A stretch of DNA of 32,000 nucleotides from Coprobacillaceae bacterium (GCA_963675515.1 OY776328.1:1680001-1712000), one strand, 5' to 3'; shown: positions 1,396-25,488, numbered from the stretch's first letter. The notes: a model not told the origin generated them from the sequence alone. A program made the numbers and translations.

Positions 1396-1455
1396 TTGAA
1401 TGAATAGAATAGTGATATTTGTATGAAAATGGCTTATAGAATAAAGGTGGTATAT

Positions 1456-2058: not shown

Positions 2059-2100
2059 TGATCAATCAACTTATATTGCAAAAGAGGTAAGGTGATAATA

Positions 2101-2802
2101 ATGAATAAAAGACACATGATATTTACAGGAATGGTTTTCTCGCTGATCTTGCTTACAGTCAGCTCGTCAACGGCTCTGCTTGCTGATTCTTCGGGACCGG
2201 CCCAAAACATATTCACCTCGACTAGAAAAGTGGACATCCTGTTGCGTGAACCGGGATGGGATGGATACAGCTTTGATGATGATGGTTGGGAACACGGCTT
2301 GGGAACCAAAGACGACTCAACAAGTCTGGATCTGGGTTTCAACAAGGCGACAACTTACATGCCGGGTGACACAATCGTCAAGGATCCAAAGATCCAACTC
2401 GATCAGAGCAGTGAAGACTGTTATGTGGCAATGAAAGTCTCATTCCTGCTTAAGGATGCGACCGGTACATACATAAATGTAGATAAATCGGAACTTACAA
2501 GCACCCTGATTGATGATCTGGTGATCAGCTCCAACTGGCATCAGATTCCCGACAGTGAAACCCCGCCTGAAAACAAGTATGAGATCTATATTTTTGATGG
2601 CGCTGATGACATTGCGGACCTTCTTTCCACCGATGGCACATCGGGTACGGACGCACTGTTTAGCGAAATCAAGGTAAAGTTCAATATATATGAAGAAAAT
2701 CTCAAAGATTTTGAAATCAATGTGAATGCATATGCGATTCAGGGGACAAACCTGGATATCGGCGATGTTGATTCCACAATGCTTGAATTCATCGAAGATT
2801 AG
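2101..2802 (+). CDS. Secreted TasA-like paralogue, REPxWDGY subfamily (233 aa)
   Basis: ORF track 2092..2802. ATG 2101 follows AAGAGGTAAGGTG. N-terminus MNKRHMIFTGMVFSLILLTVSSSTALLADSSGPAQNIFTS is a SipW-type signal. Clear paralogue of 16595..17278: NIFTSTRKVDILLREPGWDGYSF vs NVFTSSRGIDIELREPAWDGYDF, YMPGDTIVKDPKI vs YLPGDTVPKDPTI, DCYVAMKV vs NTYVAMKL. Confidence 0.75.
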   Translation: MNKRHMIFTGMVFSLILLTVSSSTALLADSSGPAQNIFTSTRKVDILLREPGWDGYSFDDDGWEHGLGTKDDSTSLDLGFNKATTYMPGDTIVKDPKIQLDQSSEDCYVAMKVSFLLKDATGTYINVDKSELTSTLIDDLVISSNWHQIPDSETPPENKYEIYIFDGADDIADLLSTDGTSGTDALFSEIKVKFNIYEENLKDFEINVNAYAIQGTNLDIGDVDSTMLEFIED

Positions 2803-2836
2803 GATTTCAAAATCATAGAAAGGAGAATAGCTACAT

Positions 2837-5416
2837 ATGAAAATTAAAAACATCATAAAAATGGGTCTCGTGTTGTTTCTTACATTGGGCATCATATCCC
2901 TGCCAAATAACGTTGATGCCCTTACACAAGAAGAGCTGGATACAATTCACATGGATAAGACAGCTACATACAATGGGGATGGCACTTATACCATTAACCT
3001 GGAAACCTATGTCACTGGTGATATAACGGTCACATCTGAAGATGTGCCGGTTGACTTTATTCTGGTGTTGGACCAATCAGGGTCTATGGATTCGTATTTT
3101 GCCTCAGGCAAAACCCGTATGGAAGCTTTGAAGGATGCGGCACATGATTTCGTCGATTCGATCGATGCTTTGGATCGAACGACAGGTGATACAGTTTCCA
3201 TTGTGGGATTCGCAACTGATCCGGACTCCGTGTATGCAACCCCCGGAGGTGGAAGTTACCAAGTTACAGAAGCCTTTGATGGAAATACAGGGCCCAGCCC
3301 ATCAACATATCAGGATACTCCTGGTTGGCCTTACAATACCGTTATGGGTTGGAGCTATACAAATTTGGTCAGTAGGGTAGTCAAAGGAGTCGAAACCAAT
3401 AATTCGGATATCCATGACGCCATTGATTCACTTAAACCAGAAGGAGCTACTTCAGCTGATACTGGTATGGAAATTGCTAGACAGATATATAATGCAACTG
3501 CTTCAAATGGACACTTGAAGGTGATTTTATTCTTCACCGATGGTGTACCAACTACTGCAAGTTCTTTTAGTCCTACTGTTGCTAATGCTGCAATTACAGT
3601 TGCAAAGGAACTGAAAGATAATGGTGTAAAAATATTTACAGTCAAAACATCTAATGTTAATGACAATGATACAATCAATTACATGAAGGCTATGTCTTCA
3701 AATTATCCTTATGCGACCAGCTATACATCATTGGGAACTCAGGAAAGCAATGATTTTTATTATAATGTTGCTGATACTCTTGATATGCAAAATGTTTTTG
3801 AAACTGTTCAAAATTACGGAATTGTACAAAACTCGATTCTTTCGACTGATACGGAACTTGTCGATTACTGTTCGGACGTATTGACTGTTCCGGCCTTGGC
3901 AGATGTCCATGTGTATACCTATGCATATACCGGCAGCGGCACTTTCTCTTCCACAGGAGTGGAACTGACCAAAGGCGTCGATGTAACTGCAACAATCGAT
4001 TCGGTTGCAAAAACGATAACGGTCACTGGATTCGATTATGCGGCAAACTCCTGCATAGATGGCGATGGTACTATCCCGACTCAGGGTAACAAACTAGTTG
4101 TTTCATTCACTACGACTGATATACCTGGTTTTATCGGCGGAAACAACGTTGAAACCAACACTCCCGATTCGGCCTTGTATTATGAGGATGAGGAAATCAA
4201 ACCATTCCCCGAACCGACTGTCAATGTTCCTTTGGACTATGAATTCACAGCGAATGATCAGGCGATCTACATCACAAACAATCTTGAAGACGTCACGGCC
4301 TTCTTCGATGATGTATCAACATCAGGTATCCAATATCAGATTGACGGGGTCACCTATGACCTAGGAGAACATCGCAACGATTATGCGGACGTCACTTATC
4401 AGATATATGATGGAACCACCTTGATTGGTGAATATACAATACCGGCCGGTGGCACAACTGGAAGTTTCACATGGTATCCCGACGCGCTTGACACGTCTGG
4501 TTTGACAGGAACCCATGAGTATACAATCAAAGCTGTTGTGGAAACGCAAACGGCACTTCCAACCAGCACAGGCACTCCTGTCACAGCGCCGCTTGTAATT
4601 GAGGACACCGCAAAAGTGTTTGTATTCGTACCTCAGGTGACTACAAACGATGAGGTCATCTTCAAAGGTGAATCATTCACAGTGGATAACATAAATGAAA
4701 CAGTAAATTGGGTTTGCAATGATCCGGCTTATGTGCCAGGAGTTGACCCGGTTGTCCAGGGCACTGCTCCTACGCTGAGCTACAGTCTCGATGGCGGCAC
4801 CTCAAGTGTCATAACCACTCCAACAACCAAAGATACAAACGTGATCACATATAACGTGAGTGTATATGCGAATGGTAATGATGTGACTGCCAATCTTGCA
4901 ACCGGTTCGGATGTCCAGTTCAACGTATACATCGTTGAAGGAGAATTCCAGATAACCCAGATTATCGATGTCGAATACTCACAGATTGACATCTCGGCAC
5001 TACAGGGATTCGGCTATGAAATCCAGAAACTTGACGGAGGAGGCAATGTGGTTGAAACTTACAATGTCGCCCTTTATCCTCGCGAAGGATCAAGCGACTC
5101 GGATATAATTTCAGGCTTATCAATTGGAACGTATAGGGTTGTCAGTGATGACGCCTGGCTGGTAAGATACACCAATGCGCTTCAAAATCCGGACTCGGAT
5201 CCGATTTCACCTGATTCGATTATCGTTACATTAAGCAGAGATGATCTAAATTTTGTTGACATCCGCCAGGATGATATTGTCAATCTGGCAGCTATTGGCA
5301 TTACAATTACCAACACTGACGATGATGTGACTTTTGTAGCTACGAAGGTTCCTTCATACTGGCTGTCTGATTCAGGATATTCAAGAAATATCATAAATAA
5401 TCCTGTGTCTGAATAA
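2837..5416 (+). CDS. Large secreted von Willebrand factor A (vWA) domain protein, 859 aa, adhesin-like
   Basis: RBS AAAGGAGA precedes the ATG. Signal peptide MKIKNIIKMGLVLFLTLGIISLPNNVDA. MIDAS-type motif VDFILVLDQSGSM (DxSxS), with later ...FFTDG... typical of vWA. About 500 aa of T/V/D/Y-rich, beta-type C-terminal sequence. No LPXTG and no C-terminal TM segment. Confidence 0.8.
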   Translation: MKIKNIIKMGLVLFLTLGIISLPNNVDALTQEELDTIHMDKTATYNGDGTYTINLETYVTGDITVTSEDVPVDFILVLDQSGSMDSYFASGKTRMEALKDAAHDFVDSIDALDRTTGDTVSIVGFATDPDSVYATPGGGSYQVTEAFDGNTGPSPSTYQDTPGWPYNTVMGWSYTNLVSRVVKGVETNNSDIHDAIDSLKPEGATSADTGMEIARQIYNATASNGHLKVILFFTDGVPTTASSFSPTVANAAITVAKELKDNGVKIFTVKTSNVNDNDTINYMKAMSSNYPYATSYTSLGTQESNDFYYNVADTLDMQNVFETVQNYGIVQNSILSTDTELVDYCSDVLTVPALADVHVYTYAYTGSGTFSSTGVELTKGVDVTATIDSVAKTITVTGFDYAANSCIDGDGTIPTQGNKLVVSFTTTDIPGFIGGNNVETNTPDSALYYEDEEIKPFPEPTVNVPLDYEFTANDQAIYITNNLEDVTAFFDDVSTSGIQYQIDGVTYDLGEHRNDYADVTYQIYDGTTLIGEYTIPAGGTTGSFTWYPDALDTSGLTGTHEYTIKAVVETQTALPTSTGTPVTAPLVIEDTAKVFVFVPQVTTNDEVIFKGESFTVDNINETVNWVCNDPAYVPGVDPVVQGTAPTLSYSLDGGTSSVITTPTTKDTNVITYNVSVYANGNDVTANLATGSDVQFNVYIVEGEFQITQIIDVEYSQIDISALQGFGYEIQKLDGGGNVVETYNVALYPREGSSDSDIISGLSIGTYRVVSDDAWLVRYTNALQNPDSDPISPDSIIVTLSRDDLNFVDIRQDDIVNLAAIGITITNTDDDVTFVATKVPSYWLSDSGYSRNIINNPVSE

Positions 5417-8200: not shown

Positions 8201-9787
8201 CTAAACAATCAGCCTTTGTTTTCTATTCTTTTTATTGTGAAATTTCATAAGGTTGAACCCTAGAGCTACCAAATACAGCTCGATTTTGACACTTTTAGCA
8301 CCTCGTCGTCTCAAACGGGTATATTTTATGTCTTCTTTGATGACTCCGAAGGCTCCCTCAACTTGGATGCTTCTCTGCCTTTTCAGTTCCTTGCCAAACT
8401 CAGTGGAAAGATTTTTATCGACTTCACTGTGGAATTCTTCAAGAACCGAATTTCGTCGCAATTTCCTTTCAACCACCGATTTGGTGCACAGTGACATATT
8501 GGAACAGTCACTGCAGCCTTGGCATCGGTAATTGGCTGTTATCTGGATATACTTCCCTTTGGTTTCATAACTGTCATCTACGTACTGATCAAAGACATTG
8601 CCTTCAGGGCAAATTTTGTAGCCTTCCTCATTTTCTGGCCAGTTGATTGAGTTGTAGATCCTCTTCTTGAATTTGGAATCATGTTTCTTTGCGTACATAT
8701 TGTACTTCATGCTCAAATTCATCCCACTTTCCAGGCAGTAGAAATAATTTTCATAGCTTCCATAACCGGCATCGCCAACTGGCCACTTAGGAAGAAATCC
8801 GTATTTCTCCTTGTAGGACTTCATAAAGGGAATAAAGGTCTTCACGTCACCAGGATTGGGATAAACGTCTAGATGGACGATATATTCATCACTGACTCCT
8901 AGCTGAAGATTGTAGCCTGGCTTGAATACTCCGGTTTGGTTATAGTAGTCGTATTTCATGTTCATCATTGTGGCATCATGATCGGTTTTGGAATAGCTGT
9001 TCCTCTCACCACAAATCTCCAACTTCTCTTCGTATTCAAACAATTTGATGAAATACTCCAAGATTTTATCATAAGCCGACTGCACCTTGGTTTTCCGTTT
9101 ACCCTTGCCATATACAATCTCGATATTCTCACTGACCATGTGCTCCATGAGGTCATCAGCGATTTCTCCTACATAATCCGATTGGTAATTTGGTGCAGCC
9201 TGATAGTCGGTAAAACCAAGACCAGCCAAGTCCGATATCGCTTCAGTTATTTTTAGATAAAGCTTGTCCCGGTTGGTTAATACTGCTTTCTTCCAGACGA
9301 AACTTGTCTTTCTGGCATTGGCTTCTATTTTAGTTCCGTCGATATAAATAATCGAGGTATCTACTTCCTCGAGCTTGACTATTTCTTTTGTGATATCATA
9401 AAAAATATCTTCTATTTTCAAAGCTAAACGGTTATTGATAAAACGCTGAAAAGCCATATGAGATGGTCTTTCCTCGTTCGATAACCACATATACCTAATA
9501 TCAAATTTGCACAAATCCTCAAGGTCACGAAGACTGGGATTACCGTTCATAAACGCAAACAATAAAACTTGCAACATCATATCAGGGTCGTAGCCCTTGT
9601 TACCTCTTTGACAGTTATCTGAAAAATACTTTCTAGTGTCAATTCCTCTCATAATCTCTACGAATGATGTCACTGGATCGTCAATTGGTAAAATAATATC
9701 AATATCCAGTGGAAGTTTGAATTGAAATGCGCTATAATTACCACTGTACTTGGGGTAATTGGACTCCAACATTTCGATGTTTAACAT
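8201..9787 (-). CDS. IS1182-family (IS5-like DDE) transposase, 528 aa, apparently intact
   Basis: N-terminal region with ...GNKGYDPDMMLQVLLFAFMNG... Cys-rich stretch YKICPEGN...YRCQGCSDCSNMSLC. C-terminal ...QVEGAFGVIKEDIKYTRLRRRGAKSVKIELYLVALGFNLMKF, typical of this family. Confidence 0.9.
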   Translation of the reverse strand: MLNIEMLESNYPKYSGNYSAFQFKLPLDIDIILPIDDPVTSFVEIMRGIDTRKYFSDNCQRGNKGYDPDMMLQVLLFAFMNGNPSLRDLEDLCKFDIRYMWLSNEERPSHMAFQRFINNRLALKIEDIFYDITKEIVKLEEVDTSIIYIDGTKIEANARKTSFVWKKAVLTNRDKLYLKITEAISDLAGLGFTDYQAAPNYQSDYVGEIADDLMEHMVSENIEIVYGKGKRKTKVQSAYDKILEYFIKLFEYEEKLEICGERNSYSKTDHDATMMNMKYDYYNQTGVFKPGYNLQLGVSDEYIVHLDVYPNPGDVKTFIPFMKSYKEKYGFLPKWPVGDAGYGSYENYFYCLESGMNLSMKYNMYAKKHDSKFKKRIYNSINWPENEEGYKICPEGNVFDQYVDDSYETKGKYIQITANYRCQGCSDCSNMSLCTKSVVERKLRRNSVLEEFHSEVDKNLSTEFGKELKRQRSIQVEGAFGVIKEDIKYTRLRRRGAKSVKIELYLVALGFNLMKFHNKKNRKQRLIV

Positions 9788-15027: not shown

Positions 15028-15202
15028 CATTGTATATAAGTGGTACTTATTTTATTATGTTGAATCTAGTGGGTTGATTTTTACCACCTTTAGTAGTAAC
15101 ATAATAGTATATATAGGACAATGATGTTGCTAATAGTCACTAATGATTAAAGACTATTAAAGTACATATTTTACACACTTATTATATTTGGGGAGTGATT
15201 TT

Positions 15203-16402
15203 ATGGAATATTCTTGTGTTTTACATGTCCAAGCCTTTGGTGAATTTCAAATCAGTAATGAGACAGGTCAGCTGAATCTGAGCATGCTTAAATCCAAACG
15301 ACTATCAAAACTGCTGTTGTATTTTGTGACCCATCACAGCACCATCATCCCTTCTTCGGATCTGTGCGATTACCTATGGGAAGAGAACGAGAGCTCCAAC
15401 CCGATCGGGGCGCTTAAAAACCTCGTCTACCGGTTGCGGACGGTAATGAAGCGGGTATGGCCCGATCATGATCTTATAATGACGGGATCGGGGACTTATT
15501 TCTGGAACTCGAATGTAAAACTAATTGTCGATTTCGAAGAATTCTACGAATTGGTCAGTTCGGTAAGTGATGAAATGGACGAAGAGTCGAAGATAAGTCG
15601 TTACAAAAGAGCTACGGAAATATATCAGGACCGGCTGTTTGCCCATTTTGATTATGATTCCTTGATAATGCAGAATTCGATGTATTATCACAATGTTTTT
15701 TTGAAAATGACCAAAGATTTCCTGAAGGTGCTTTACAACCAGAAACTTTATGATGAGCTTTATTTTTATTCCAACAATGCATTGACTCTTGACAATACAG
15801 AAGAGGATTTTTACCGTTATGAAATAATGGCACTGGGCCAAAATAATGAGTTTGAACTGGCCCGGGTCAAATATGAGACAGCCAAATATGTTCTTAATCA
15901 TGAGCTTGGGGTTTTGCCAAGCGATAAGCTGATCAAGACTTATGAACAGATTTTAAGCCAGTTTCTTCAGGCCAATGAATCAATCGACAAGGTCCAACAG
16001 GACATTGTTCCGCTGCAATCAAATAACGTTCTTGTATGTGATTACGGAGCATTTAAAAACCTATGCAATCTTGAGCTTCGGCTGGCGCAAAGACACTCGT
16101 TCGATTCGACTTTGCTTCTGGTCTCGGTTAATGTGATGAAACCGTTTGACGGCCATTCCAAGATCTTCCGGGATACCTTGAATAGGGGAATGGACCGTGT
16201 TGAAGATGTTTTGATTGATGCACTGCGCAACAGCGATTCGGTTTCCAAGGTCTCGCCCAATCAGTACAGCTGTCTTCTTAGCATGTGCAATATTGACGAT
16301 GCAACCTTGGTTATCGAGAGAATCGAGAAATATTTTTACCGCGGTCTGAAAAAAAACGACATCTACATAACTTGCAACAGTCAAAAACTTGGGTCTAACT
16401 GA
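15203..16402 (+). CDS. SARP-like transcriptional activator (OmpR-type wHTH + BTAD) fused to a degenerate GGDEF-like domain
   Basis: ORF track 15188..16402 starts at a TTG. ATG 15203 follows GGGGAG. The N-terminus LHVQAFGEFQI...SKLLLYFVTHH...SSDLCDYLWEE...NPIGALKNLVYRLRTVM fits the SARP/wHTH pattern. The middle helical BTAD-like region includes ...ALGQNNEFELARVKYETAKYVLNHELGVLPSDKLIKTYEQIL. The C-terminal ~105 aa follow the GGDEF-domain pattern (STLLLVSVNVMKPFDGHSK...ALRNSDSVSKVSPNQYSCLL...ATLVIERIEKYF), with GGDEF replaced by SPNQY and RxxD (RNSD) retained 5 residues upstream. Confidence 0.75.
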   Translation: MEYSCVLHVQAFGEFQISNETGQLNLSMLKSKRLSKLLLYFVTHHSTIIPSSDLCDYLWEENESSNPIGALKNLVYRLRTVMKRVWPDHDLIMTGSGTYFWNSNVKLIVDFEEFYELVSSVSDEMDEESKISRYKRATEIYQDRLFAHFDYDSLIMQNSMYYHNVFLKMTKDFLKVLYNQKLYDELYFYSNNALTLDNTEEDFYRYEIMALGQNNEFELARVKYETAKYVLNHELGVLPSDKLIKTYEQILSQFLQANESIDKVQQDIVPLQSNNVLVCDYGAFKNLCNLELRLAQRHSFDSTLLLVSVNVMKPFDGHSKIFRDTLNRGMDRVEDVLIDALRNSDSVSKVSPNQYSCLLSMCNIDDATLVIERIEKYFYRGLKKNDIYITCNSQKLGSN

Positions 16403-16416
16403 GCCAAGTTTTTTTG
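16383..16416 (+). terminator. Rho-independent terminator of the regulator gene
   Basis: AAAAACTTGG (16383-16392) / CCAAGTTTTT (16404-16413) plus further T residues. The stop codon lies in the loop. Confidence 0.75.
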
Positions 16417-16430
16417 TGGTTTTTCAATCT

Positions 16431-16463
16431 TGTGACTTCAGTGTGACAGGTAAATAATATTAT
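16431..16463 (+). promoter_or_regulatory. Direct-repeat operator plus -10 (site 2): TGTGACT-tcag-TGTGACA-N9-TATTAT
   Basis: Heptamers at 16431-16437 and 16442-16448, with TATTAT at 16458-16463. Spacings are identical to sites 1 and 3. Confidence 0.7.
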
Positions 16464-16594
16464 GTTATTGAAATTAGAGGTAAAGACAATAACTCAAGGC
16501 GAACACGAAAACCCGAAAATGTCTTACCATAATATCCGTATTATTTGTTACATAATCATGTTAGTTTACTATTAAGGAAAGGAAGAATGACAAC

Positions 16595-17278
16595 ATGAAG
16601 AAATTCACAAAGTATTTAATGATTTTTGCATTGGTTTTTGGTCTTACCCTGTCATTGACTATGGCTCTTTTGACTGATACCACATCATCGGCAACAAACG
16701 TTTTTACATCATCACGGGGAATCGACATTGAGTTAAGAGAACCGGCATGGGATGGATACGATTTTTCAGAAGCTTGGCCGGGCGGTACATCACCTAAATC
16801 AGCTGATGTAACCCTTGGTTACAACATAGCCAATGAGTACTTGCCAGGAGATACTGTGCCTAAAGATCCGACCATCAAAGCCATGACCGGAAGCGACAAC
16901 ACCTACGTGGCAATGAAATTGACCTACAAGGTTAACGATGTTGTAGTTCCTTATGCAACATTTGCGACATATCTTCGAGATGGCAGCATCGCATTTGACA
17001 CTGGAGCGGCAGTAGACGAATGGTCTAATGAATCGACAGTGCCTGCAGACAATGATTTCTTTGTTTTCAATTCTTATCTTGTAGCCGATTCAGCTCAAGC
17101 AACGACATCACCATTGTTCACCCAAGTGTTGATTTCCTTCGGATTGGTTCCTGATGGTTCAGGTAACTTACCAAAATTGGAAATAGATGCAACTGCTTAT
17201 GGTGTTCAAATATCATTGCCAGCTGGAACTGACAAGGCAACAGCTTTGAAAACCCTTGCCGGATACCCAGCGCCTTGA
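16595..17278 (+). CDS. Secreted TasA-like paralogue, REPxWDGY subfamily (227 aa)
   Basis: RBS GGAAAGGAAG. SipW-type signal MKKFTKYLMIFALVFGLTLSLTMALLTDTTSSATNVFTS. Paralogue of 2101..2802 (see that entry). Confidence 0.8.
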   Translation: MKKFTKYLMIFALVFGLTLSLTMALLTDTTSSATNVFTSSRGIDIELREPAWDGYDFSEAWPGGTSPKSADVTLGYNIANEYLPGDTVPKDPTIKAMTGSDNTYVAMKLTYKVNDVVVPYATFATYLRDGSIAFDTGAAVDEWSNESTVPADNDFFVFNSYLVADSAQATTSPLFTQVLISFGLVPDGSGNLPKLEIDATAYGVQISLPAGTDKATALKTLAGYPAP

Positions 17279-17333: not shown

Positions 17334-17984
17334 ATGAAATTGAACAAGAAAATTGCTGCAATTGTCACTACAGCAGCGATTGCACTCAGTGCCACTGTCG
17401 GATTCACGCTGGCATACTTCACTGACTACACCAAAACTGAAACCAACACAATCACAATGGGACATGTTGACATCGATTTAAGAGAAACTTCAGTTGCAGG
17501 ACCTGGCGTTAAGGCTGGTACGGCTACTGATGACGGTTACGATTACAATGATGTAATGCCTGGCGATGTCTATTCCAAACAGCCTGTAATTACAGTAATG
17601 GCTGGATCTGAAGATTGTTATGTCCGCGCACTGGTTACTCTTAAGACAATAGATACAGGCGGCGATGGGGTCATCTCTGAAGCTACTCTGTTGAGCTATT
17701 TGAATATTGAGACAACCGATTGGTTTATCGGTAGTTTGACAAGTAATCCTGATGGTTCAGAAAGTGCATATGTGTATTATAAGAACTCTTTGGCAGCTGG
17801 CGCAAACGTAACTGTATTCTCTACAGTATCATTCCCAAGCAGCTTGACCAACAGCAGCACAAACGATGATTACATAATAACTGTAAAGGCTGAAGCGATT
17901 CAAGCAGCTAATGTGACACCTACAACCAACCCAGGTGGCATGATCACTGGTTGGCCTGCAGCGGCAATCGAACAATATTCTTAA
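17334..17984 (+). CDS. Secreted TasA/camelysin-like protein with SipW-cognate signal peptide (216 aa)
   Basis: RBS AAAGGAGA. N-terminus ...ALSATVGFTLAYFTDYTKTETNTITMGHVDIDL is a close match to the SipW-cognate signal and mature N-terminus pattern. Also MPGDVYSKQPVITV...SEDCYVRALVTL and ...ITVKAEAIQAANV. Confidence 0.85.
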   Translation: MKLNKKIAAIVTTAAIALSATVGFTLAYFTDYTKTETNTITMGHVDIDLRETSVAGPGVKAGTATDDGYDYNDVMPGDVYSKQPVITVMAGSEDCYVRALVTLKTIDTGGDGVISEATLLSYLNIETTDWFIGSLTSNPDGSESAYVYYKNSLAAGANVTVFSTVSFPSSLTNSSTNDDYIITVKAEAIQAANVTPTTNPGGMITGWPAAAIEQYS

Positions 17985-17996
17985 TATGACAGCATG

Positions 17997-18042
17997 AAGG
18001 CATGTTCGTTAACGGATAGTGTTAACACAACATGCCTTTTTT
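17997..18042. terminator. Terminator hairpin between the convergent operons
   Basis: Perfect 10-bp stem AAGGCATGTT (17997-18006) / AACATGCCTT (18029-18038), with a T-run to 18042 on the + strand. The pilT stop codon abuts it at 18043. Confidence 0.75.
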
Positions 18043-19095
18043 CTATCCCAATTTCTGGGTGATATATTGGTTGTTCTTGCAGTACTTGATCACTGTTTCC
18101 CTGGATATGATACGGTCCTGGTAAAGTTGCAGCAGACTGTTGTCAAGGGTCACCATGTTTTGCCGGTCGCTTTCAATGATCGAGTCGATCTGGTGGATCT
18201 TTTTTTCTCTTATAAGGTTGCGGATGGCCGGATTGACAATCATGATTTCAAACACCGGAATGAGCTTGCCGGAAATATCGGGAACGAGATGCTGCGACAC
18301 GACCGCATTGAGGGTCAGTGAGAGCATCATCGCTATCTGCGGCTGCTCATTGGCTGGAAAGGCATCGATGATCCGGTTGATTGTATTGCTTGCGCCGATT
18401 GTATGGAGTGTGGAAAACACCAGGTGGCCGGTCTCGCTTGCGGTTATCGCAGTCTCGATAGTTTCATGGTCGCGCATCTCCCCAAGCAGGATGACATCGG
18501 GACACTGGCGCAGGCTGGCCCTCAGGGCGGTCAGATAACAGTTGGTGTCATTGCCGATCTCCCGCTGGGTGATTATCGATTTGTTGTGGACATGAAGATA
18601 CTCGATAGGGTCTTCAAGAGTGATGACATGACGGGCATGATTGTGGTTGATGTAGTCGATGATGCATGCCAGGGTTGTCGATTTGCCGCTTCCTGAAGGT
18701 CCGGTGAAAAGGATCAGCCCGTTGGTCTGGTCGCCTAGAGCAATCAGCTGTTCGGGAATGTTCAATTCCTGGAAATCCGGAAGCTTGAAGGCGATGATTC
18801 GGATCACGCAAGCCAGTGAACCCCGCTGTTTGAACATGCTCACCCGGAAGCGGGAAAGGTGGGCTATCGAGAAGGCGAAATCGTCATCGCCGTCATTGAA
18901 GAGGATATCGACATCGCGCTTGGCGATTTCGTAAATCTGGCTGATAAGCTGTTTGGTGTCTTCGGTGGTGAGTACATCATTGTTCAAGGGGCACAGTTGA
19001 TTGTCTTTCTTGAACTTGACTGGGATGTTGGCTTCGATAAAGATATCCGAAGCCTGCATGGTTATTGCCCGGTGCAGAATTGAAGTAATTTCCAT
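18043..19095 (-). CDS. pilT: PilT-family type IV filament ATPase (retraction-ATPase type), 350 aa
   Basis: ORF track 18043..19128. Start moved to ATG 19095 (AGGAGA 5 nt upstream). Walker A GPSGSGKSTT, ITLEDPIEY, LRQCPDVILLGEMRD, ETGHLVFSTLHT, and the PilT/PilU-specific motif AIRNLIRE (PAIRNLIREKKIHQI). There is no N-terminal extension of PilB/GspE type. Confidence 0.85.
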   Translation of the reverse strand: MEITSILHRAITMQASDIFIEANIPVKFKKDNQLCPLNNDVLTTEDTKQLISQIYEIAKRDVDILFNDGDDDFAFSIAHLSRFRVSMFKQRGSLACVIRIIAFKLPDFQELNIPEQLIALGDQTNGLILFTGPSGSGKSTTLACIIDYINHNHARHVITLEDPIEYLHVHNKSIITQREIGNDTNCYLTALRASLRQCPDVILLGEMRDHETIETAITASETGHLVFSTLHTIGASNTINRIIDAFPANEQPQIAMMLSLTLNAVVSQHLVPDISGKLIPVFEIMIVNPAIRNLIREKKIHQIDSIIESDRQNMVTLDNSLLQLYQDRIISRETVIKYCKNNQYITQKLG

Positions 19096-19096
19096 A

Positions 19097-19483
19097 TCAT
19101 TCTCCTGTGTAGACTGGAGCCAAGTCATCTAGCTGGTAATCCGAATTGTTTTGGACCTGCAAGGAGATGATTTGCTTGGCATTATAATCGTAAACCAATG
19201 TGACTGTCTGGCCATAGTCAATGACCTCCTGGAAAGTTATCACATTTGCTTCCATTTGAAAATCGTATTGTTCCTGAAGGGTTGCCAACGGAATTTCCCG
19301 GCTGTCGTTGATGAAACGGTTGATTATCGACCTGGCCTCAAGGTAGGTGAGGTTGTGGGCGAGGTTCTGGTCAATCAGGGTTTGGCTGGCCTTGGTCTGG
19401 ATGTATGAGTTGAATGTCAATGTGATCAATACCAGGATGATGATGATATTGAAAAGGCTTGTCAGCCCGATTCTAATCTTCAT
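19097..19483 (-). CDS. Pseudopilin-like small protein (128 aa, ComGG-sized)
   Basis: RBS GAGGTGG. N-terminus MKIRIG/LTSLFNIIIILVLITL is a short basic leader plus a hydrophobic helix. Gly at the -1-like position is retained, but no Glu occurs at +5. Confidence 0.6.
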   Translation of the reverse strand: MKIRIGLTSLFNIIIILVLITLTFNSYIQTKASQTLIDQNLAHNLTYLEARSIINRFINDSREIPLATLQEQYDFQMEANVITFQEVIDYGQTVTLVYDYNAKQIISLQVQNNSDYQLDDLAPVYTGE

Positions 19484-19841
19484 AAGCCACCTCGTAGTCA
19501 GTCGCGATGATCAGGTTGTCATATTTGTCGTAAACATCAAGATGGAATATCGGGAAATTGTTTTCAACTTTTACGCAATAATAATAATCGTCCGTGGTGT
19601 TTATATTGTTGCTGTCAAAAAGGATTAGCGAATCACTGGTTTGGTAGTAACCTTCAAGATCGCCTTGATGTTCTTGAAGGATTGCGACGATACTGTTGAG
19701 CTGGATGATTGCTTTGGCCTTGATCGTGTTGTGGTAATTGATGAGAGTTGTTTTCATCATGATCTGGATGACCAGCGCCAGGGCGATTGCGAAAACCAGA
19801 AGGTTGACACATAGCTCGAGCATGCTTATCTTATCTTTCAC
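19473..19841 (-). CDS. Pseudopilin-like small protein (122 aa, ComGE/GF-sized)
   Basis: GTG start overlapping the upstream stop (GTGA), with GGAGGG 6 nt upstream. N-terminus (M)KDK/ISMLELCVNLLVFAIALALV has a Glu at the +5-like position, but Lys replaces Gly at -1. Confidence 0.6.
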   Translation of the reverse strand: MKDKISMLELCVNLLVFAIALALVIQIMMKTTLINYHNTIKAKAIIQLNSIVAILQEHQGDLEGYYQTSDSLILFDSNNINTTDDYYYCVKVENNFPIFHLDVYDKYDNLIIATDYEVAYED

Positions 19842-20254
19842 GGCTTGCCCTCCAGGCTCAAGTAGTAGTTTTCGTTGATTACAAGCAGGCCATCAATGAG
19901 ATCCAGGTCCAGTTTTTCCATGGAACATATCTGGTCCCCATATTCCATATCGAATTCCCGGCCGGCCGGCAGATAAAGCTCGCATAGGTAACCATCGTTG
20001 TTGTACAGGTAGGTCACATATGAAGAACCATCTTCGAGTACAAGAATGTCCGGGGTATCATCTTTTTTTATTTCAACCGATTTGGCCCGCTTGATCTTTT
20101 CGTTTATGAAGCTGATCACAAACTGCTCATCTACAAGGGCATCTTGGGCTATGGCTGTCTTGTTTGTGATGTTTAGCACCAGGATGCAGATGGCGCCAAG
20201 GGTGAATATAAAGATGCCGGTAATGAGGTATGAAAACAAGTCGCTTTTATTCAT
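19838..20254 (-). CDS. Pseudopilin-like small protein (138 aa, ComGD-sized)
   Basis: Overlaps the upstream gene by 8 nt. N-terminus MNKSDLFSYLITGIFIFTLGAICILVL is a single N-terminal hydrophobic helix with no G/FTLxE motif. Confidence 0.55.
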   Translation of the reverse strand: MNKSDLFSYLITGIFIFTLGAICILVLNITNKTAIAQDALVDEQFVISFINEKIKRAKSVEIKKDDTPDILVLEDGSSYVTYLYNNDGYLCELYLPAGREFDMEYGDQICSMEKLDLDLIDGLLVINENYYLSLEGKP

Positions 20255-20531
20255 AGGCGAATACCGTCAAGTCAGGTATGATGTTTTCTCCAATCGGGAT
20301 CAAAAAAACCTGATATCTTGTCTTATCGAAGCTTAGGCCGTAATTTTCCTCAAGATATCCCAGTGATTCGGGATAACGCCCCTCATTGATGTAACAAAGC
20401 AGTATCTTGTCATTGATCGACTGCTCGAGTGCATGCAATGCGTTTTTTTGGCTGGTCTTATTGAACTGGTTGACAAATATGATTGCCAGGGCCAATGCAA
20501 TAATGACCAGCGACAATTTTACCATCTTCAT
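20247..20531 (-). CDS. ComGC/GspG-like major pseudopilin candidate with degenerate prepilin motif (94 aa)
   Basis: ATGA overlap with the upstream stop. MKMVK/LSLVIIALALAIIFVNQF aligns to ComGC MNEKG/FTLVEMLIVLFIISILL, but G-1 is K and E+5 is I. The globular part ...HALEQSINDKILLCYINEGRYPESLGYLEENYGL matches the ComGC/GspG pattern (...G.YP..L..L...GY). Confidence 0.65.
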   Translation of the reverse strand: MKMVKLSLVIIALALAIIFVNQFNKTSQKNALHALEQSINDKILLCYINEGRYPESLGYLEENYGLSFDKTRYQVFLIPIGENIIPDLTVFAYE

Positions 20532-21460
20532 AAGTCTGAAAGAATCGCGAACAGCGGCAATATCAATGAGAGCAGGATGATTGCCACAATGACGACAAAA
20601 CCGGTGCCAAAGTATAGTTCGAACTTGGCCAATGATTCATCCATCCTTGTATTGGCCTTCTGGCGATACTCGTCGAAAAGCATTTCGAGAACCTTTTCAT
20701 GGGTTCCGTTCTGGATGCTCATTTCCAACAAGGACAGCTCAAGAGGCTCGAGCCGGGAAGAAAACGCCTCGATCACGCCCGATTTGGACATGTTGGCTAT
20801 TCCAGCTGCCTGATCGAAAGAAACTCCGGCCTTTACCAGGGTGGAAACGGCAAAAAGCTCATTGGATGCCCGATTGAGAGCCTTTGCCTTTTTGAATATC
20901 CCAACCTTGTCTTGCCGGATCATTCCCAGCAACAAAAGCATACCAGATAGCACAATGATGATGAAGTAAGTGAGGTAATCATTGATGAAGTATCCCAGCT
21001 GAAGGCTTATCCTGGCAACACCGGTCAGCTGTGCTCCCATGCTTGCATAAAGGTCGTTGAACACCGGGAGAATCCTGGTAACCAGGATGGTCATTATGGC
21101 TATCATGACCAGGCTAATGCCAATGGGGAAATTCAACATCCTTTTCAATTTCCTGTTGCTTTGATCAAGTTGCTTGTAATAGTTTGTCAGGTGAAGAAAT
21201 ACTTCGTCAAGATTTCCCGAATGCAGGCCGGCTTTGACCAGGTCAAGATAAAGCTGGTCAAACAATCCGGTGCTTTCCAGGGCGGAAATGATGTCATTTT
21301 GTTCGAGCTGGGCGATTACCTGGTTCAACAGATACTTCATCCGCATTTGTGTGGTGTTTGTTTCAAGCAATCTAAGTCCCGCCAAGAAACTTTGGCCGCT
21401 GGTGGAAATCAGATACATTTGCTTTGAAAAATTTATGATTAGATCGTAATCGTTTCTCAT
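20528..21460 (-). CDS. PilC/ComGB/GspF-family platform membrane protein (short, about 310 aa)
   Basis: ORF track 20528..21472. I prefer ATG 21460 (GGAGG 5 nt upstream); ATG 21472 overlaps the upstream stop as TAATG and remains possible. Two GspF-like repeats (...LVKAGLHSGNLDEVF... and ...LVKAGVSFDQAAGI...) and three hydrophobic segments. Confidence 0.75.
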   Translation of the reverse strand: MRNDYDLIINFSKQMYLISTSGQSFLAGLRLLETNTTQMRMKYLLNQVIAQLEQNDIISALESTGLFDQLYLDLVKAGLHSGNLDEVFLHLTNYYKQLDQSNRKLKRMLNFPIGISLVMIAIMTILVTRILPVFNDLYASMGAQLTGVARISLQLGYFINDYLTYFIIIVLSGMLLLLGMIRQDKVGIFKKAKALNRASNELFAVSTLVKAGVSFDQAAGIANMSKSGVIEAFSSRLEPLELSLLEMSIQNGTHEKVLEMLFDEYRQKANTRMDESLAKFELYFGTGFVVIVAIILLSLILPLFAILSDL

Positions 21461-21471
21461 TGCCGCCTCCA

Positions 21472-22392
21472 TTAAAAGATGTATTTCAGCTCATAATTTT
21501 CGCTGTCGGTTGTGAATTCCTGGATTTTCTTGTTGCCTGGGTCTTGCGAGATGAAGGTGGGATCCATGATTTGCCATTTCTCGTTTTCAAAATAGATGAA
21601 ATTGTCGATCCAACCGGTCTGATCCGTATAGACACTGACCCAGGCATGATATGTGTCTTTGACATATCCGAATTCCAGCCGGGTCGGGATAGCCTGGGTG
21701 CGCAGCATCGCGACAAGCAATGACGCGTAATCGAAGCATATCCCTTTTTTGGATTGGTAGATAGAGTTTAGATCCGGAATATAATCGTAGGCGACACTTT
21801 TAGCCTTTTCATAGTCATAATCGTAGTTGGTTATAATGTAATCGAAGATTAGCTGGATCTTTTCCAGGGTTGACGACGCATTTGTGACCAGCTCGCTGGC
21901 AACATATACAACCTGGGTGTCCTTGTCGAAATTGACATACTGGTTGTTGTACAAGAAGGCATTGAATCCGTTTTCCTGCTCAACTTTGAAGCTGGTCTTG
22001 AATATCTTGCCATAGCGGTTGCCTTCGATATTTTCATAAACCGTGATCCCATAAGTTCCTGATGTCTCGACCAGATTGAAAAAGTCGATTTTTCCGGTCA
22101 GGTTGTATGTGTAGATGGCCCCTGAAGGCAGTGTCAGCTGGAGTTTGGGCCTGTCGTTGGTTCCGGTGTATTTCACTCCAAAATACCCTTTGACGACATT
22201 GGTCAGGTCTATTTCCACCGCATCGTTGCCTTGGGTTTTTCCTTCATTGAAGCTGGCAAGATAGAAAACCGGTTCGCTTTTCAAGGTGGCTTGATTGGAG
22301 GAAGAAGCGAGATTCAAAGGGGATGGTGTCTGGGCGTTGGTACCACATCCGCTCAAAAGCATGGCTGCGATGATCAGGAATTTGAATTTCAT
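21472..22392 (-). CDS. Lipoprotein with C-terminal transglutaminase-like (papain-fold Cys-His-Asp) domain
   Basis: ORF track 21472..22458. Start moved to ATG 22392 (AGAGGTG upstream). Lipobox MKFKFLIIAAMLLSGC. Transglutaminase core KKGICFDYASLLVAMLRTQAIPTRLEFGY...YHAWVSVY...GW...IMDPTF (Cys, His, Asp). Confidence 0.8.
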   Translation of the reverse strand: MKFKFLIIAAMLLSGCGTNAQTPSPLNLASSSNQATLKSEPVFYLASFNEGKTQGNDAVEIDLTNVVKGYFGVKYTGTNDRPKLQLTLPSGAIYTYNLTGKIDFFNLVETSGTYGITVYENIEGNRYGKIFKTSFKVEQENGFNAFLYNNQYVNFDKDTQVVYVASELVTNASSTLEKIQLIFDYIITNYDYDYEKAKSVAYDYIPDLNSIYQSKKGICFDYASLLVAMLRTQAIPTRLEFGYVKDTYHAWVSVYTDQTGWIDNFIYFENEKWQIMDPTFISQDPGNKKIQEFTTDSENYELKYIF

Positions 22393-22536
22393 CTGGATAT
22401 CACCTCTTATCGTTGAGCAAAGATCCATAAACCGGATTTTCAATTGCGGTTTGCTCACATATGGTAATTATACAAGATTTCCCCGTTTTTATAAAGGGTA
22501 ACAATTCATTTCCTTTAAAACAACAATTGATAGAGA

Positions 22537-22569: not shown

Positions 22570-22593
22570 ACAAGTGATATAGAGGTGAAAAAT

Positions 22594-23238
22594 ATGAACA
22601 AGAAGATAATAATAGGAATGATATTCATACTAGGAGTAGTTGGTTTTAGCGTTCGTGGCACCTACAGTGTCATTCAAAGCAGTTTTGAAACCCAGAAAGC
22701 TATCTACACCCCATATCTTGGCATAGATTTTGTCAATGGTGACGGTAGCACGATGTCTGACAATTTTTTGGAGAGTGAGGTGTATGGAATGCCGGGTGAT
22801 GTCATCGATGGCGGACTGGCGATCAAAAACACCGAAAATACGACAGCCTACGTCCGGGTGACGATTTACCGCTACTGGGCCGATGAAGACGGGACCAAAA
22901 ACACAACCGACCGGGATGATCCAAATTACCTCGATCCCGCCCAAATCCAGTTCACGATAGCGAACGGCTGGCTTGTTTTTGACGGTGATGAGTATTCCGA
23001 AGTCACATATGCGTATTACACCAGACCGCTGGATCCAGGAGAGTATGCTACGGTCATCGATTCGTACACTTATCTGGATGTAACCCAAAACAACAATCTT
23101 TACGCTGACAAGATCGTCCATCTCGAGTTCTTCGGTTATGGCGTTCAGACCTTTGATGCCAAGAACTCTTTCAAGGCTGAATGGGGCGTTGATGTTGAAT
23201 TTGACGCTGATGAGAACATTGTTTCAATCGGATTGTAG
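22594..23238 (+). CDS. Secreted TasA/camelysin-like protein (214 aa)
   Basis: ORF track 22585..23238 (GTG). ATG 22594 follows AGAGGTG. N-terminus MNKKIIIGMIFILGVVGFSVRGTYSVIQSSFETQKAIY is a divergent SipW-type signal. MPGDVIDGGLAIKNTENTTAYVRVTIY and ...HLEFFGYGVQTFDAKNSFKAEWGV parallel the other paralogues. Confidence 0.7.
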   Translation: MNKKIIIGMIFILGVVGFSVRGTYSVIQSSFETQKAIYTPYLGIDFVNGDGSTMSDNFLESEVYGMPGDVIDGGLAIKNTENTTAYVRVTIYRYWADEDGTKNTTDRDDPNYLDPAQIQFTIANGWLVFDGDEYSEVTYAYYTRPLDPGEYATVIDSYTYLDVTQNNNLYADKIVHLEFFGYGVQTFDAKNSFKAEWGVDVEFDADENIVSIGL

Positions 23239-23253
23239 AAAAGAGGGATGAAA

Positions 23254-23880
23254 ATGAAAAAACTGATAATTGGTTTGGCCATCACTCTTGTAGCTTTTCT
23301 GTCAATGAACAATGTGGCTGCAGCGGATGTGATCACCTATCAAGGTGATGCCAACAGATTCATAATGCTTGACGGTAATGCCCCGGATTTCGAAAACATG
23401 CTTCCAGGTGAATCAAGAACAGTCACTTTCAATCTGGTAAATGGCAGTGGCGGACAGATGCGTTTCTATATGTCAAGCGAGATTCTCGACAATATCGCAA
23501 ACAAAGGTGACGGGGATGCGGTGTACACATTCACCATCGCCGATGGGACAACACCGTTTTTTGAAACCGAAGTCGGAAATGATGAAGTGACCATCGGGTT
23601 GCAGTTTCTGACCAATGACAACAACATCCTGTTGGGGACTTTGAATGCCGGCGCATCAAAGACAATCAATGTCACCCTTTCACTGGACGGGGATTCGGCC
23701 AACAACGAATATCAAGGGCAAACCGGGGTAGTCAATTTCATATTCTCAGTCGAGCAGCCTTTGCCAAAGATTGTCAAAACCGGCGACGAATCGGTTTCAC
23801 CGCTTGTCTATGGTGGCTTGATCGTGGCAGCGGGATTAGTGCTGATACTGTACAAAAGGGGTGGTAAACATGAAAAGTAG
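23254..23880 (+). CDS. Secreted beta-sandwich-type protein with C-terminal sortase-like sorting signal (IVKTG + TM + basic tail)
   Basis: ORF track 23248..23880. ATG 23254 has better RBS spacing (AGAGGG). Classical signal ...SMNNVAAADV. C-terminus PLPKIVKTGDESVSPLVYGGLIVAAGLVLILYKRGGKHEK. Confidence 0.7.
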   Translation: MKKLIIGLAITLVAFLSMNNVAAADVITYQGDANRFIMLDGNAPDFENMLPGESRTVTFNLVNGSGGQMRFYMSSEILDNIANKGDGDAVYTFTIADGTTPFFETEVGNDEVTIGLQFLTNDNNILLGTLNAGASKTINVTLSLDGDSANNEYQGQTGVVNFIFSVEQPLPKIVKTGDESVSPLVYGGLIVAAGLVLILYKRGGKHEK

Positions 23881-24703
23881 ATCATTGAAAGTGATGATTG
23901 GCATCGTCGTGATGATGTTCTTTACCCTGTTGCCAGCCAATGCATTGCGTAGTTACGATATAACGTTCAAGACCGGTAGTCAGGGAAGCATCGCTTCCCA
24001 GGACCGGGTTGTTCTCAATCTGGAATATGGGGCAACTTTGGATCCGGATCTGATCCAGGCGGCCATCGATGTGAACGAAGGTTATTTCTTTACCGGGTTT
24101 TACCTTGATGTGCCTGAAACAGTGACCAGGGAAGACACCTTTGTCGCACAGTACCGCAAGATTATCGATTCGGTAACATACCAGATAAACTATCTCGATG
24201 AAAATGACAAACCTCTGGCAACGTCGGTTGTCAAGACAACCAATCTTAATGCTCCAGCAAGTGTCCTGGCCATGGAAATCCCGGATTACGCGGTCGATGC
24301 GGCAGTCAAAACCGAAACAATCACCCAGGATGGTATTCAAATCAGCTTCCATTACACATCGACCCTTGCCAGCTCGCCAGGTGGTGGAAGTTCAAGTTCC
24401 GGTAGTATTTCAACTTCAGTCGTTGTTGTGCCAGGTACCGGAAATCAAATAACTGTTGTTACCCCCGATGACGGAACAACAACCGATGACGACGGCACTA
24501 CAACCGATGATGGAACAACAACCGATGACGATGATGGAACTACAACCGATGACGATGGAACAATAATCGATGACGATGATGTGCCATTGACACCGGGCTT
24601 CTGGAATACAACCAGCGTCACAGCCGCTGCGGTAATAGCACTGTTGGCATCTGGAATCGTTCTCTGGCTGCTTGTTTTCAAGAAAAAACGTGGTAGCCGT
24701 TGA
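23870..24703 (+). CDS. Membrane-anchored adhesin-like protein (Listeria-Bacteroides-repeat-like + MucBP-like modules, acidic D/G/T repeat, C-terminal TM anchor)
   Basis: ORF track 23861..24703 (GTG). ATG 23870 follows AAGGGGTGG. YDITFKTGSQGSI...EGYFFTGFY resembles the Flg_new/List-Bact repeat. VTYQINYLDENDKPL...IQISFHYT resembles MucBP. The C-terminus is ...TSVTAAAVIALLASGIVLWLLVFKKKRGSR. Confidence 0.65.
   Translation: MKSRSLKVMIGIVVMMFFTLLPANALRSYDITFKTGSQGSIASQDRVVLNLEYGATLDPDLIQAAIDVNEGYFFTGFYLDVPETVTREDTFVAQYRKIIDSVTYQINYLDENDKPLATSVVKTTNLNAPASVLAMEIPDYAVDAAVKTETITQDGIQISFHYTSTLASSPGGGSSSSGSISTSVVVVPGTGNQITVVTPDDGTTTDDDGTTTDDGTTTDDDDGTTTDDDGTIIDDDDVPLTPGFWNTTSVTAAAVIALLASGIVLWLLVFKKKRGSR
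24467..24580 (+). repeat. In-frame imperfect tandem repeat, unit 18-24 nt (GAT GAC (GAY)n GGN ACW ACA ACC), encoding (D)nGTTT
   Basis: Five to six consecutive units read directly: gatgacggaacaacaacc / gatgacgacggcactacaacc / gatgatggaacaacaacc / gatgacgatgatggaactacaacc / gatgacgatggaacaataatc / gatgacgatgat. Confidence 0.85.
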
Positions 24704-25200
24704 TGGTGAAGCTCATCCATTTTTTAACCAATACAGTTATCGTCATTGTAGTCGCCTTTATGGCATTGTTGTATGTTCCAAGAATCATGGGAATCAGCCC
24801 TTATGTGGTGTTGTCGGGTTCGATGGAGCCTACTTACCATGTGGGCAGTCTGATTTTCGTAAACAAGAATTTTGATTCGATTGAAGTTGGTGATCCAATC
24901 ACCTTCCAAATATCCAGTTCAACTCTGGTAACCCACCGGGTTATTGAAGTGGACCAGGAGGCGATGCTCTACACGACCAAAGGCGATGCCAACAATACTG
25001 CCGATGGTTCCAAGGTGGCATATGACAATATTGTCGGGGTGCCAATGTTCACAATCCCATACCTGGGATATGTGGCGGTGTTCGCAATCAGTTTCAATGG
25101 CAAGATCATCCTGGGATCCGTGGTGGCTTTGATGATACTGCTTAGCTACCTGGCAGATATGTACAGGAAAGACCAAGAAAAAATGCCTACTCAACCCTGA
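24703..25200 (+). CDS. sipW: Signal peptidase I, ER/archaeal type (SipW-like, Ser-His)
   Basis: ORF track 24700..25200 (TTG). ATG 24703 overlaps the upstream TGA (TGATG). SPase boxes VLSGSMEPTY, LVTHRVIEV (His in place of the bacterial Lys box) and TKGDANNTADG. Contains an N-terminal and a C-terminal TM segment. Confidence 0.85.
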   Translation: MVKLIHFLTNTVIVIVVAFMALLYVPRIMGISPYVVLSGSMEPTYHVGSLIFVNKNFDSIEVGDPITFQISSSTLVTHRVIEVDQEAMLYTTKGDANNTADGSKVAYDNIVGVPMFTIPYLGYVAVFAISFNGKIILGSVVALMILLSYLADMYRKDQEKMPTQP

Positions 25201-25274: not shown

Positions 25275-25280
25275 GTGGTT

Positions 25281-25488
25281 AATCTAGGGAACGGGATTAA
25301 GCAGGAAGAAGATTGCAGAGACAATATGGCTGGTGAAAATATTGATTTGACGTCTGCGGGACACCCGGGAAGAGTTACTTTGAATCGAGTAGAAGTAAAC
25401 GTTGGTCGCGTTAAGACAGAGTGCGTGTGAATCACACGAATTAAGGTGGTACCGCGTTTTTGACGTCCTTATTTTAAGGGCGTTTTTT
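25281..25488 (+). ncRNA. T-box riboswitch leader of hisS-aspS
   Basis: AGAGA bulge motif (25316-25320) and distal-loop-like GGCTGGTGAAA. Conserved T-box sequence AATTAAGGTGGTACCGCG (25439-25456). Terminator ACGTCCTT-loop-AAGGGCGT plus TTTTTT (25463-25488). Confidence 0.85.

Follow-up and report, generated by a model that had tools for sequence, protein, structure and literature searches.

In the 32,000-nucleotide stretch of a Coprobacillaceae bacterium genome considered here (GCA_963675515.1, OY776328.1:1680001-1712000; below, the window), the minus strand from 22392 to 18043 carries seven co-directional, tightly packed and intact genes. They represent a large, conserved and unnamed operon family, probably a branch of the type IV filament superfamily; component identities, gene order and conservation were computed in the present work. 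In gene order, the products are a lipoprotein with a transglutaminase core (gene 1, Pfam Transglut_core, 306 residues, 21472..22392), a platform protein (gene 2, Pfam T2SSF, 310 residues, 20528..21460), four small bitopic proteins, namely s1 (gene 3, 94 residues, 20247..20531), s2 (gene 4, Pfam DUF4860, 138 residues, 19838..20254), s3 (gene 5, 122 residues, GTG start, 19473..19841) and s4 (gene 6, 128 residues, 19097..19483), and an ATPase of the PilT/PilU family (gene 7, TIGR01420, 350 residues, 18043..19095).

The junctions are, in the same order, a gap of 11 nucleotides, overlaps of 4, 8, 4 and 11 nucleotides, and a gap of 1 nucleotide. The first-pass annotation, which had been made from the sequence alone, was right about the tight packing and was corrected in two details: one overlap measures 11 nucleotides, where 8 had been given as the maximum, and the platform gene was started at 21460 (second ATG, 3' of GGAGG) and not at the TAATG junction, because the start sites of orthologues agree there. 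A 361-residue open reading frame beginning at 19128 was set aside as an over-extended form of the ATPase, and the 350-residue version was kept.

Components of the operon

The ATPase gave 409.7 bits with the PilT/PilU model TIGR01420 (cutoff 319.1; model positions 2-341 of 343); with the other models it gave 149.7 (ComGA, cutoff 300), 120.8 (PilB) and 34.9 bits (TadA-type, TIGR03819, cutoff 373). Among solved structures, PilT was matched at 5e-91 to 3e-78 and PilU at 3e-73, PilB and GspE only at about 1e-23. Model scores and structure matches therefore make the protein a PilT-type ATPase, as had been proposed, and favour this assignment over one to the ComGA/PilB assembly ATPases. It belongs to the T2SSE family (PF00437, 1.1e-47) and carries the Walker A motif GPSGSGKST, GEMRD, a His box and the previously noted AIRNLIRE; the Walker A lysine, Walker B, GEMRD and the His box are invariant in 41 operon-linked homologues. 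Three distant operon ATPases likewise passed the PilT/PilU cutoff, and operon PilT proteins across classes are 52-57% identical to that of the window. An exact-sequence look-up of the window ATPase, with either start, returned no entry.

The platform protein is of the PilC/GspF family (PF00482, T2SSF, 1.8e-20, two repeats). With the NCBIfam models it scored best on GspF (83 bits, cutoff 424), followed by PilC and ComGB (53 bits, cutoff 240), all far below the cutoffs; about 65 N-terminal residues of GspF are missing from it. ATPase and platform are two of the four features by which the type IV filament superfamily is recognised.

The N-terminus of the gene 1 product, MKFKFLIIAAMLLSGC, is a signal sequence with the lipobox LLSGC at its end. 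The C-terminal part is a transglutaminase-like/papain-like core (PF01841, 9.8e-22) with the catalytic residues Cys217, His249 and Asp277, which are invariant in 73/73, 73/73 and 72/73 family members, respectively; core and triad together place the protein in the transglutaminase-like superfamily. Of the solved structures, 3isr, a putative cysteine protease, is the closest relative (E 1e-3). This lipoprotein is the most distinctive part of the system; the first-pass annotation had counted seven genes correctly and had overlooked both the lipoprotein with its Cys-His-Asp triad and the SipW/TasA-like surroundings of the operon.

Among the small proteins, s2 is a member of DUF4860 (PF16152, 1.1e-13, 51.4 bits, gathering cutoff 25), a family without a described function; s1, s3 and s4 matched no NCBIfam or Pfam model, and the ComGC-GG models missed all four. 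The N-terminal motifs were found as first listed, and a complete class III signal (Gly-1 and Glu+5) is present in none of the four.

Protein s1 has neither Gly-1 nor Glu+5, and its ectodomain bears the invariant motif CYxxEGxYPxSLxYLEExY. In most homologues (loci L003-L086) the membrane helix is preceded by a cytoplasmic extension of about 20 residues with a conserved start, MNRF or MHRF, that has been lost in the clade of the window; the conservation of this start suggests a docking peptide for a cytoplasmic partner. The AlphaFold2 model of s1 (135 homologues; mean predicted local distance difference test score, pLDDT, 96.6) consists of a helix (2-50), a short helix (57-64) and a beta-hairpin. 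The top fit of this model in Foldseek against the PDB was the Thermus pilin PilA4 (6xxd; template modelling (TM) score 0.56, root-mean-square deviation 2.7 Å, 71 columns, probability 0.60), the E-value being not significant.

Protein s2 also has neither Gly-1 nor Glu+5; K-H-I-I-D-x-L-F is usual across its family, the Asp being gone in most of the window clade. The model (28 homologues, pLDDT 86.3) shows a 54-residue N-terminal helix (3-56) and then an eight-strand sheet; in Foldseek against the PDB the Thermus type IV-like pilin TTHA1219 (5g24) was highest in probability and TM-score (0.66 and 0.40; E 1.2, not significant). Only one close relative came from a homology search with the s2 sequence by itself. 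The predicted folds of s1 and s2 show pilin architecture.

The N-terminus of s3 in the window is MKDK|ISMLE, with a leader of four residues and Lys at -1. In the family, a polar leader (median about 9 residues) is followed by L-F-L-M-E and a hydrophobic helix; Glu+5 is the sole invariant column of the alignment, and the -1 residue (n=65) is Ser in 25, Gly in 19, Asn in 6, Lys in 4 and Arg in 3 cases, with others making up the rest. The window clade has the four-residue leader and K or E at -1. When the s3 profile was compared with PDB sequences, 5 of the 6 top matches were type IV pilins, none of them significant by itself and all with the alignment beginning at mature residue 2; N_methyl was matched by 1 of 62 s3 homologues, for which the Pfam scans otherwise gave noise.

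Protein s4 begins with MKIRIG|LTSLF. Its family has Gly6 as the sole invariant column, then small residues and a hydrophobic helix, without Glu+5; at the extreme C-terminus the motif D-x-(S/L)-(L/A)-P-V-(F/Y)-x-G is frequent (D-x-S-L-P-V-F-x-G). No PDB sequence was matched by the profiles of s1, s2 or s4; pairwise hhalign among the four small-protein families gave no convincing paralogy, and a search with the concatenated s1-s4 alignment gave no match.

The predicted folds of s1 and s2, Glu+5 of s3 and the Gly of s4 agree with the earlier description of the small proteins as pilin-like. The accompanying description of their prepilin motifs as eroded was not upheld: the non-canonical N-termini are conserved across a large family and do not represent a local loss. 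As judged from the alignments, the N-terminal features are mostly ancestral to the family, the window clade is a shortened variant, and only the very short leaders and K/E at -1 of s3 are specific to this Erysipelotrichales clade.

As a separate observation, in 21 loci without a PilT gene (L003, L013, L019 and about 18 others) a sortase gene lies directly after s4 on the opposite strand. The s4 C-terminus, LPVFxG, is faintly like LPXTG but has no membrane tail; the adjacency may be lineage synteny.

Distribution and conservation

One genome per species was scanned for the invariant s1 motif (162 species, 80 further loci), and 86 loci were inspected. The same gene order, lipoprotein, platform, s1, s2, s3, s4 and then often PilT, was found in 84 of the 86, an arrangement far beyond chance. 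Counted over these 84 loci, those ended by contig edges included, platform and s1 are present in 84/84 each, s2 in 82/84, the lipoprotein in 76/84, s4 in 74/84, s3 in 66/84 and PilT in 43/84. The PilT gene is present in slightly more than half of the complete loci, and about 40% of them have no ATPase gene at all; in the latter the machine must therefore use an ATPase encoded elsewhere.

The s1 family comprises at least 785 clusters at 50% identity (full HMMER scan). The hosts are mostly Lachnospiraceae and Oscillospiraceae, including Butyrivibrio, Anaerostipes, Acutalibacter and Lacrimispora, with few loci outside Clostridia/Erysipelotrichales; an Erysipelotrichaceae genome (s1 90% identical to that of the window) and a Coprobacillaceae genome are also among them, and the copy of Anaerostipes hadrus represents more than 1,000 contigs. 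In NCBI records s1, s3 and s4 are named 'hypothetical protein', s2 'DUF4860 domain-containing protein' and the ATPase 'twitching motility protein PilT'. A search of the accessible literature for DUF4860 and for this gene combination gave no relevant paper.

Close homologues of the platform numbered only seven among 5.8 billion proteins; on their contigs the whole island is kept, down to 41% platform identity and always between relA and hisS. A more distant platform (24% identity) is found in the same gene order, without an ATPase gene.

Comparison of the window with three orthologous loci gave ratios of nonsynonymous to synonymous substitution rates (dN/dS) of 0.03-0.29 in 15 of the 17 comparisons with unsaturated dS; the other two, s2 and s4, come from the comparison with the near-identical locus L007, where substitutions are few. 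All seven genes are under purifying selection. Gene decay was rejected on account of low dN/dS, intact open reading frames and invariant catalytic residues, which bears out the earlier statement that the genes are intact. Recent horizontal acquisition was rejected as well, the base composition of the operon region being unremarkable and the relA-hisS synteny being kept in relatives. In its closest relative, L007 (8140-12486), the operon is unevenly similar at the nucleotide level: the genes for the lipoprotein, the platform and s1 are 94-96% identical, those from s2 through PilT 97-99%, which may stem from recombination or from differing constraint.

Pfam scans of the other large open reading frames of the window (pfk, a von Willebrand factor A protein, htpG, nitroreductase, an insertion sequence (IS) transposase, recJ, apt, relA, hisS, aspS and others) found no peptidase A24, PilB or PilM/N/O, which is in line with the earlier reading that PilB/ComGA, a prepilin peptidase and PilMNO are missing from the window and that the PilT-type protein is the only ATPase of a type-IV-filament-like locus. 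Within 10 kb on each side of the operon in the 86 loci, no second T2SSE ATPase, no match to the A24 active-site motif and no open reading frame with a canonical class III pilin signature was observed. These absences hold at the level of the locus; for the whole genome, the formula 'sole ATPase, no prepilin peptidase' is unproven. Loci of the superfamily are often scattered, pilD being a 'loner' and MSH loci having no peptidase (PMC6668835), and absence from the locus is therefore weak evidence for absence from the cell.

Surroundings of the operon

To the left of the operon, on the plus strand, lie a BTAD/SARP-type regulator (15188-16402; Pfam BTAD, 2e-10) and two TasA/camelysin-like proteins with SipW-type signal peptides (16595-17278 and 17334-17984, the second with 26.1 bits on TIGR04088, cutoff 19); the TasA/camelysin-like proteins of this flank matched Peptidase_M73 (PF12389) at 1.1e-6. 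To the right, likewise on the plus strand and divergent from the operon, follow a TasA-like protein (22585-23238, from a hidden Markov model (HMM) search), two proteins with C-terminal anchor-like tails (23248-23880, 210 residues; 23861-24703, 280 residues, MucBP-like) and a SipW-type signal peptidase (24700-25200; TIGR02228, 105.7 bits, cutoff 51.85). An archaeal-type signal peptidase I and SipW-dependent signal peptides mark the flanks as a SipW/TasA-type cluster.

This set accompanies the operon in all Erysipelotrichales loci; the Oscillospiraceae locus L018 also has it beside the operon, differently arranged and with identities of 21-41%. About 78 of the 86 loci showed neither a TasA-like nor a SipW gene within 10 kb. 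A functional tie of the operon to the TasA-like genes is possible in this lineage, and the linkage is not a family-wide trait. The BTAD regulator family adjoins the operon in 17 loci; an extracytoplasmic function (ECF) sigma factor, a response regulator with an Hpt domain and a GGDEF protein are other common neighbours. In locus L006 the TasA-like genes are separated from the BTAD regulator by an inserted group II intron reverse transcriptase (RVT_1 and GIIM, 15174-16568).

In the 280-residue neighbour, the Thr/Asp-rich repeat GTTTDDD occurs in several copies (24380-24570, plus strand) before a hydrophobic tail and KKKRGSR; the C-terminus of the 210-residue neighbour consists of VKTGD, a hydrophobic stretch and a basic tail. 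Both tails are like sortase sorting signals, and the window has no sortase gene.

A promoter-like site, TTTATA-17-TATAAT, recognised by consensus match only, was located on the minus strand at 22467..22495, about 75 nucleotides upstream of gene 1 and inside the 192-nucleotide divergent intergenic region. Direct reading of the sequence gave a 10-bp inverted repeat, AAGGCATGTT...AACATGCCTT (17997..18038, assigned to neither strand), between the convergent ATPase and TasA-like genes, with a run of T after it on the plus strand; it was not called by the terminator scan because the loop is 22 nucleotides long. No riboswitch or leader was found for the operon in Rfam; the sole Rfam match in the window is a T-box leader upstream of hisS (25278-25473, plus strand, 119 bits, cutoff 93).

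Elsewhere in the window, a second TasA/camelysin-like pair (1423-2058 and 2092-2802, plus strand; TasA-like HMM E 1e-65 for 2092-2802) is followed by an 859-residue protein with von Willebrand factor A domains, and this region (1423-5416, plus strand) is possibly a further fibre or adhesin cluster dependent on SipW. Between the nitroreductase gene and recJ, in DNA of low GC content (0.37-0.39), there is an IS-type DDE transposase (DDE_Tnp_1_6, DUF772; 8201-9787, minus strand).

Relation to known systems and possible mode of action

Described type IV filament families have a PilB-type assembly ATPase, pilins processed by a prepilin peptidase, and a platform, PilT being regarded as the retraction paralogue (PMC6668835). 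By the models of those systems, the present locus is not ComG, Tad, type II secretion or standard type IVa. With the type IVa pilus it shares a PilT/PilU ATPase above the cutoff, a PilC/GspF-type platform, small proteins that combine a long helix at the N-terminus with a beta-sheet, one subunit with Glu+5, and one Gly-bearing, Glu-less subunit like the PilK/PilX-type tip pilins; unlike in that system, PilB, PilD, PilMNO and a recognisable major pilin are absent from the locus (window, 86 loci), a complete class III signal is missing, the platform is about 90 residues shorter and a transglutaminase-like lipoprotein is added. The type II secretion pseudopilus is similar in that the platform scores best on GspF and in the idea of a short, non-exposed filament of several pilins with a Glu-less cap subunit; however, GspE, GspL/M/C, a secretin and GspG are not in the operon, the host is a monoderm and the scores are far below the cutoffs. 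The Tad/Flp pilus offers, in the bifunctional CpaF, a precedent for one motor working in both directions (PMC9815625; PMC6668835), but the ATPase of the operon is not TadA/CpaF and its single platform gene contrasts with TadB plus TadC. In the MSHA pilus, PilT promotes extension besides retraction (PMC9815625), a further precedent, although MSHA, unlike the operon, keeps its own extension ATPase.

The reading preferred here, to which a probability of roughly 0.55 is given, is that the seven genes encode a working representative of a type IV filament branch that is widespread and unnamed, and that they act by the following mechanism. A PilT hexamer would dock on the PilC-like platform, and the pilin-like proteins would be shuttled from the membrane into a short filament or pseudopilus and back. 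As the repeating unit, s3 would be the strongest candidate, being the only subunit with the Glu through which pilin helices pack against one another; a priming, cap or anchoring complex would be made up of s1, s2 and s4, the last of which has Gly and no Glu+5 in the manner of GspK/PilK-type cap pilins. There is no PilB-type gene beside the operon, and the PilT motor would therefore have to support both assembly and disassembly, unless assembly is motor-free. Judging by their N-termini, s1 and s2 are excluded as prepilin peptidase substrates, and the s3 of the window clade, with Lys at -1 and its four-residue leader, is probably not cleaved either. The lipoprotein would work outside the membrane, with the cell wall or the filament as its target, and be either a cysteine protease or an enzyme that forms isopeptide bonds. 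In a recent model, a tip complex is licensed by C-terminal beta-strand addition (PMC13533445); by analogy, the conserved C-terminus of s4 could have a role via beta-strand addition, which is testable.

Several points weigh against this reading. The roughly 40% of complete loci without an ATPase gene indicate that a motor encoded elsewhere is usable, and the present genome may hold PilB/ComGA and a prepilin peptidase outside the window. The invariant Gly of s4 and the small -1 residues of s3 (S/G/A/T in 47/65) suggest that some peptidase acts on these two proteins. The pilin matches of the s1 and s2 models lack statistical significance (E about 1-2), and among the four small proteins the structure models cover these two. 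In current models the PilT and PilB motors rotate in opposite directions, and assembly by PilT only is therefore unproven. A more far-reaching version, put forward tentatively and held to be distinctly less probable than its negation, is that of a new filament lineage of gut Clostridia/Erysipelotrichia in which a PilT-family ATPase alone works with never-processed pilin-fold proteins and with its own transglutaminase-/cysteine-protease-like lipoprotein, coupled to SipW/TasA in some lineages.

Of the other explanations the most serious, regarded as possible at well below even odds, is that the operon is a dependent module whose alternative platform, minor or priming pilin-like proteins and retraction ATPase join a conventional type IV or competence pilus encoded elsewhere; the host system would supply the extension ATPase (PilB/ComGA), the prepilin peptidase and perhaps the major pilin. 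Such a dependence would suit the complete loci without any ATPase, the lack of the peptidase and of a canonical major pilin in all loci, the Gly that s4 invariably has where cleavage would be expected and the usually small -1 residue of s3, and scattered loci are normal in the superfamily (PMC6668835). It fits less well with a platform gene of the operon's own in 84/84 loci, which would be redundant if only pilins were supplied to another machine, with s1 and s2 being without a cleavage motif, with K/E at -1 in the window-clade s3, and with a transglutaminase-like protein that has no counterpart in known pili.

It is rather improbable that the set of PilT, platform and pilin-like proteins is an export engine that pushes or organises TasA-like fibres through the wall together with SipW and the anchored proteins. 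The operon is indeed embedded between the regulator with two TasA-like genes on one side and the TasA-like gene, anchored proteins and SipW on the other; conservation of the whole island down to 41% platform identity, the same gene set (21-41% identity) beside the operon in the distant Oscillospiraceae genome and the BTAD regulator family in 17 loci point the same way. However, about 78 of the 86 loci are without a TasA-like or SipW gene within 10 kb, and every Erysipelotrichales locus lies at the same place in the chromosome (relA-hisS), which means that the linkage may be inherited and not functional. Moreover, TasA-type proteins such as TasA of B. subtilis are self-assembling Sec/SipW substrates, and fibres of this type are not known to need a motor.

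The ComG operon resembles the present one as a compact single operon of a monoderm with one ATPase, one platform, several pilin-like proteins of similar size and no PilMNO. A reduced ComG-type competence operon with decayed prepilin signals, the analogy drawn in the first-pass annotation from the ComGC-GG-like sizes of the four small proteins and from the s1 motif EGRYPESL..L (which we take to be loosely like the ComGC/GspG loop), is nevertheless highly improbable and was rejected on the ComG model scores: ComGA (149.7 vs 300) and ComGB (53 vs 240) fall short of their cutoffs, GspF/PilC is the best match for the platform, and no ComG pilin model is matched. Further points against it are that the ATPase is PilT-type and last, whereas ComGA is first, that the N-terminal motifs, mostly without Gly/Glu, are conserved family traits of genes under purifying selection, and that the transglutaminase-like lipoprotein gene is absent from ComG operons.

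The operon pairs a platform with PilT only, with pilin-shaped proteins that are mostly not peptidase substrates and with a catalytically intact transglutaminase-like lipoprotein. If autonomous, it would be a natural test of whether a PilT-type motor can assemble a filament and of whether leader cleavage and N-methylation are dispensable. Since the hosts include abundant, cultivable human gut commensals (Anaerostipes hadrus, Lacrimispora, Butyrivibrio), these questions can be approached by experiment, and four 'hypothetical protein' families would be placed in a context.

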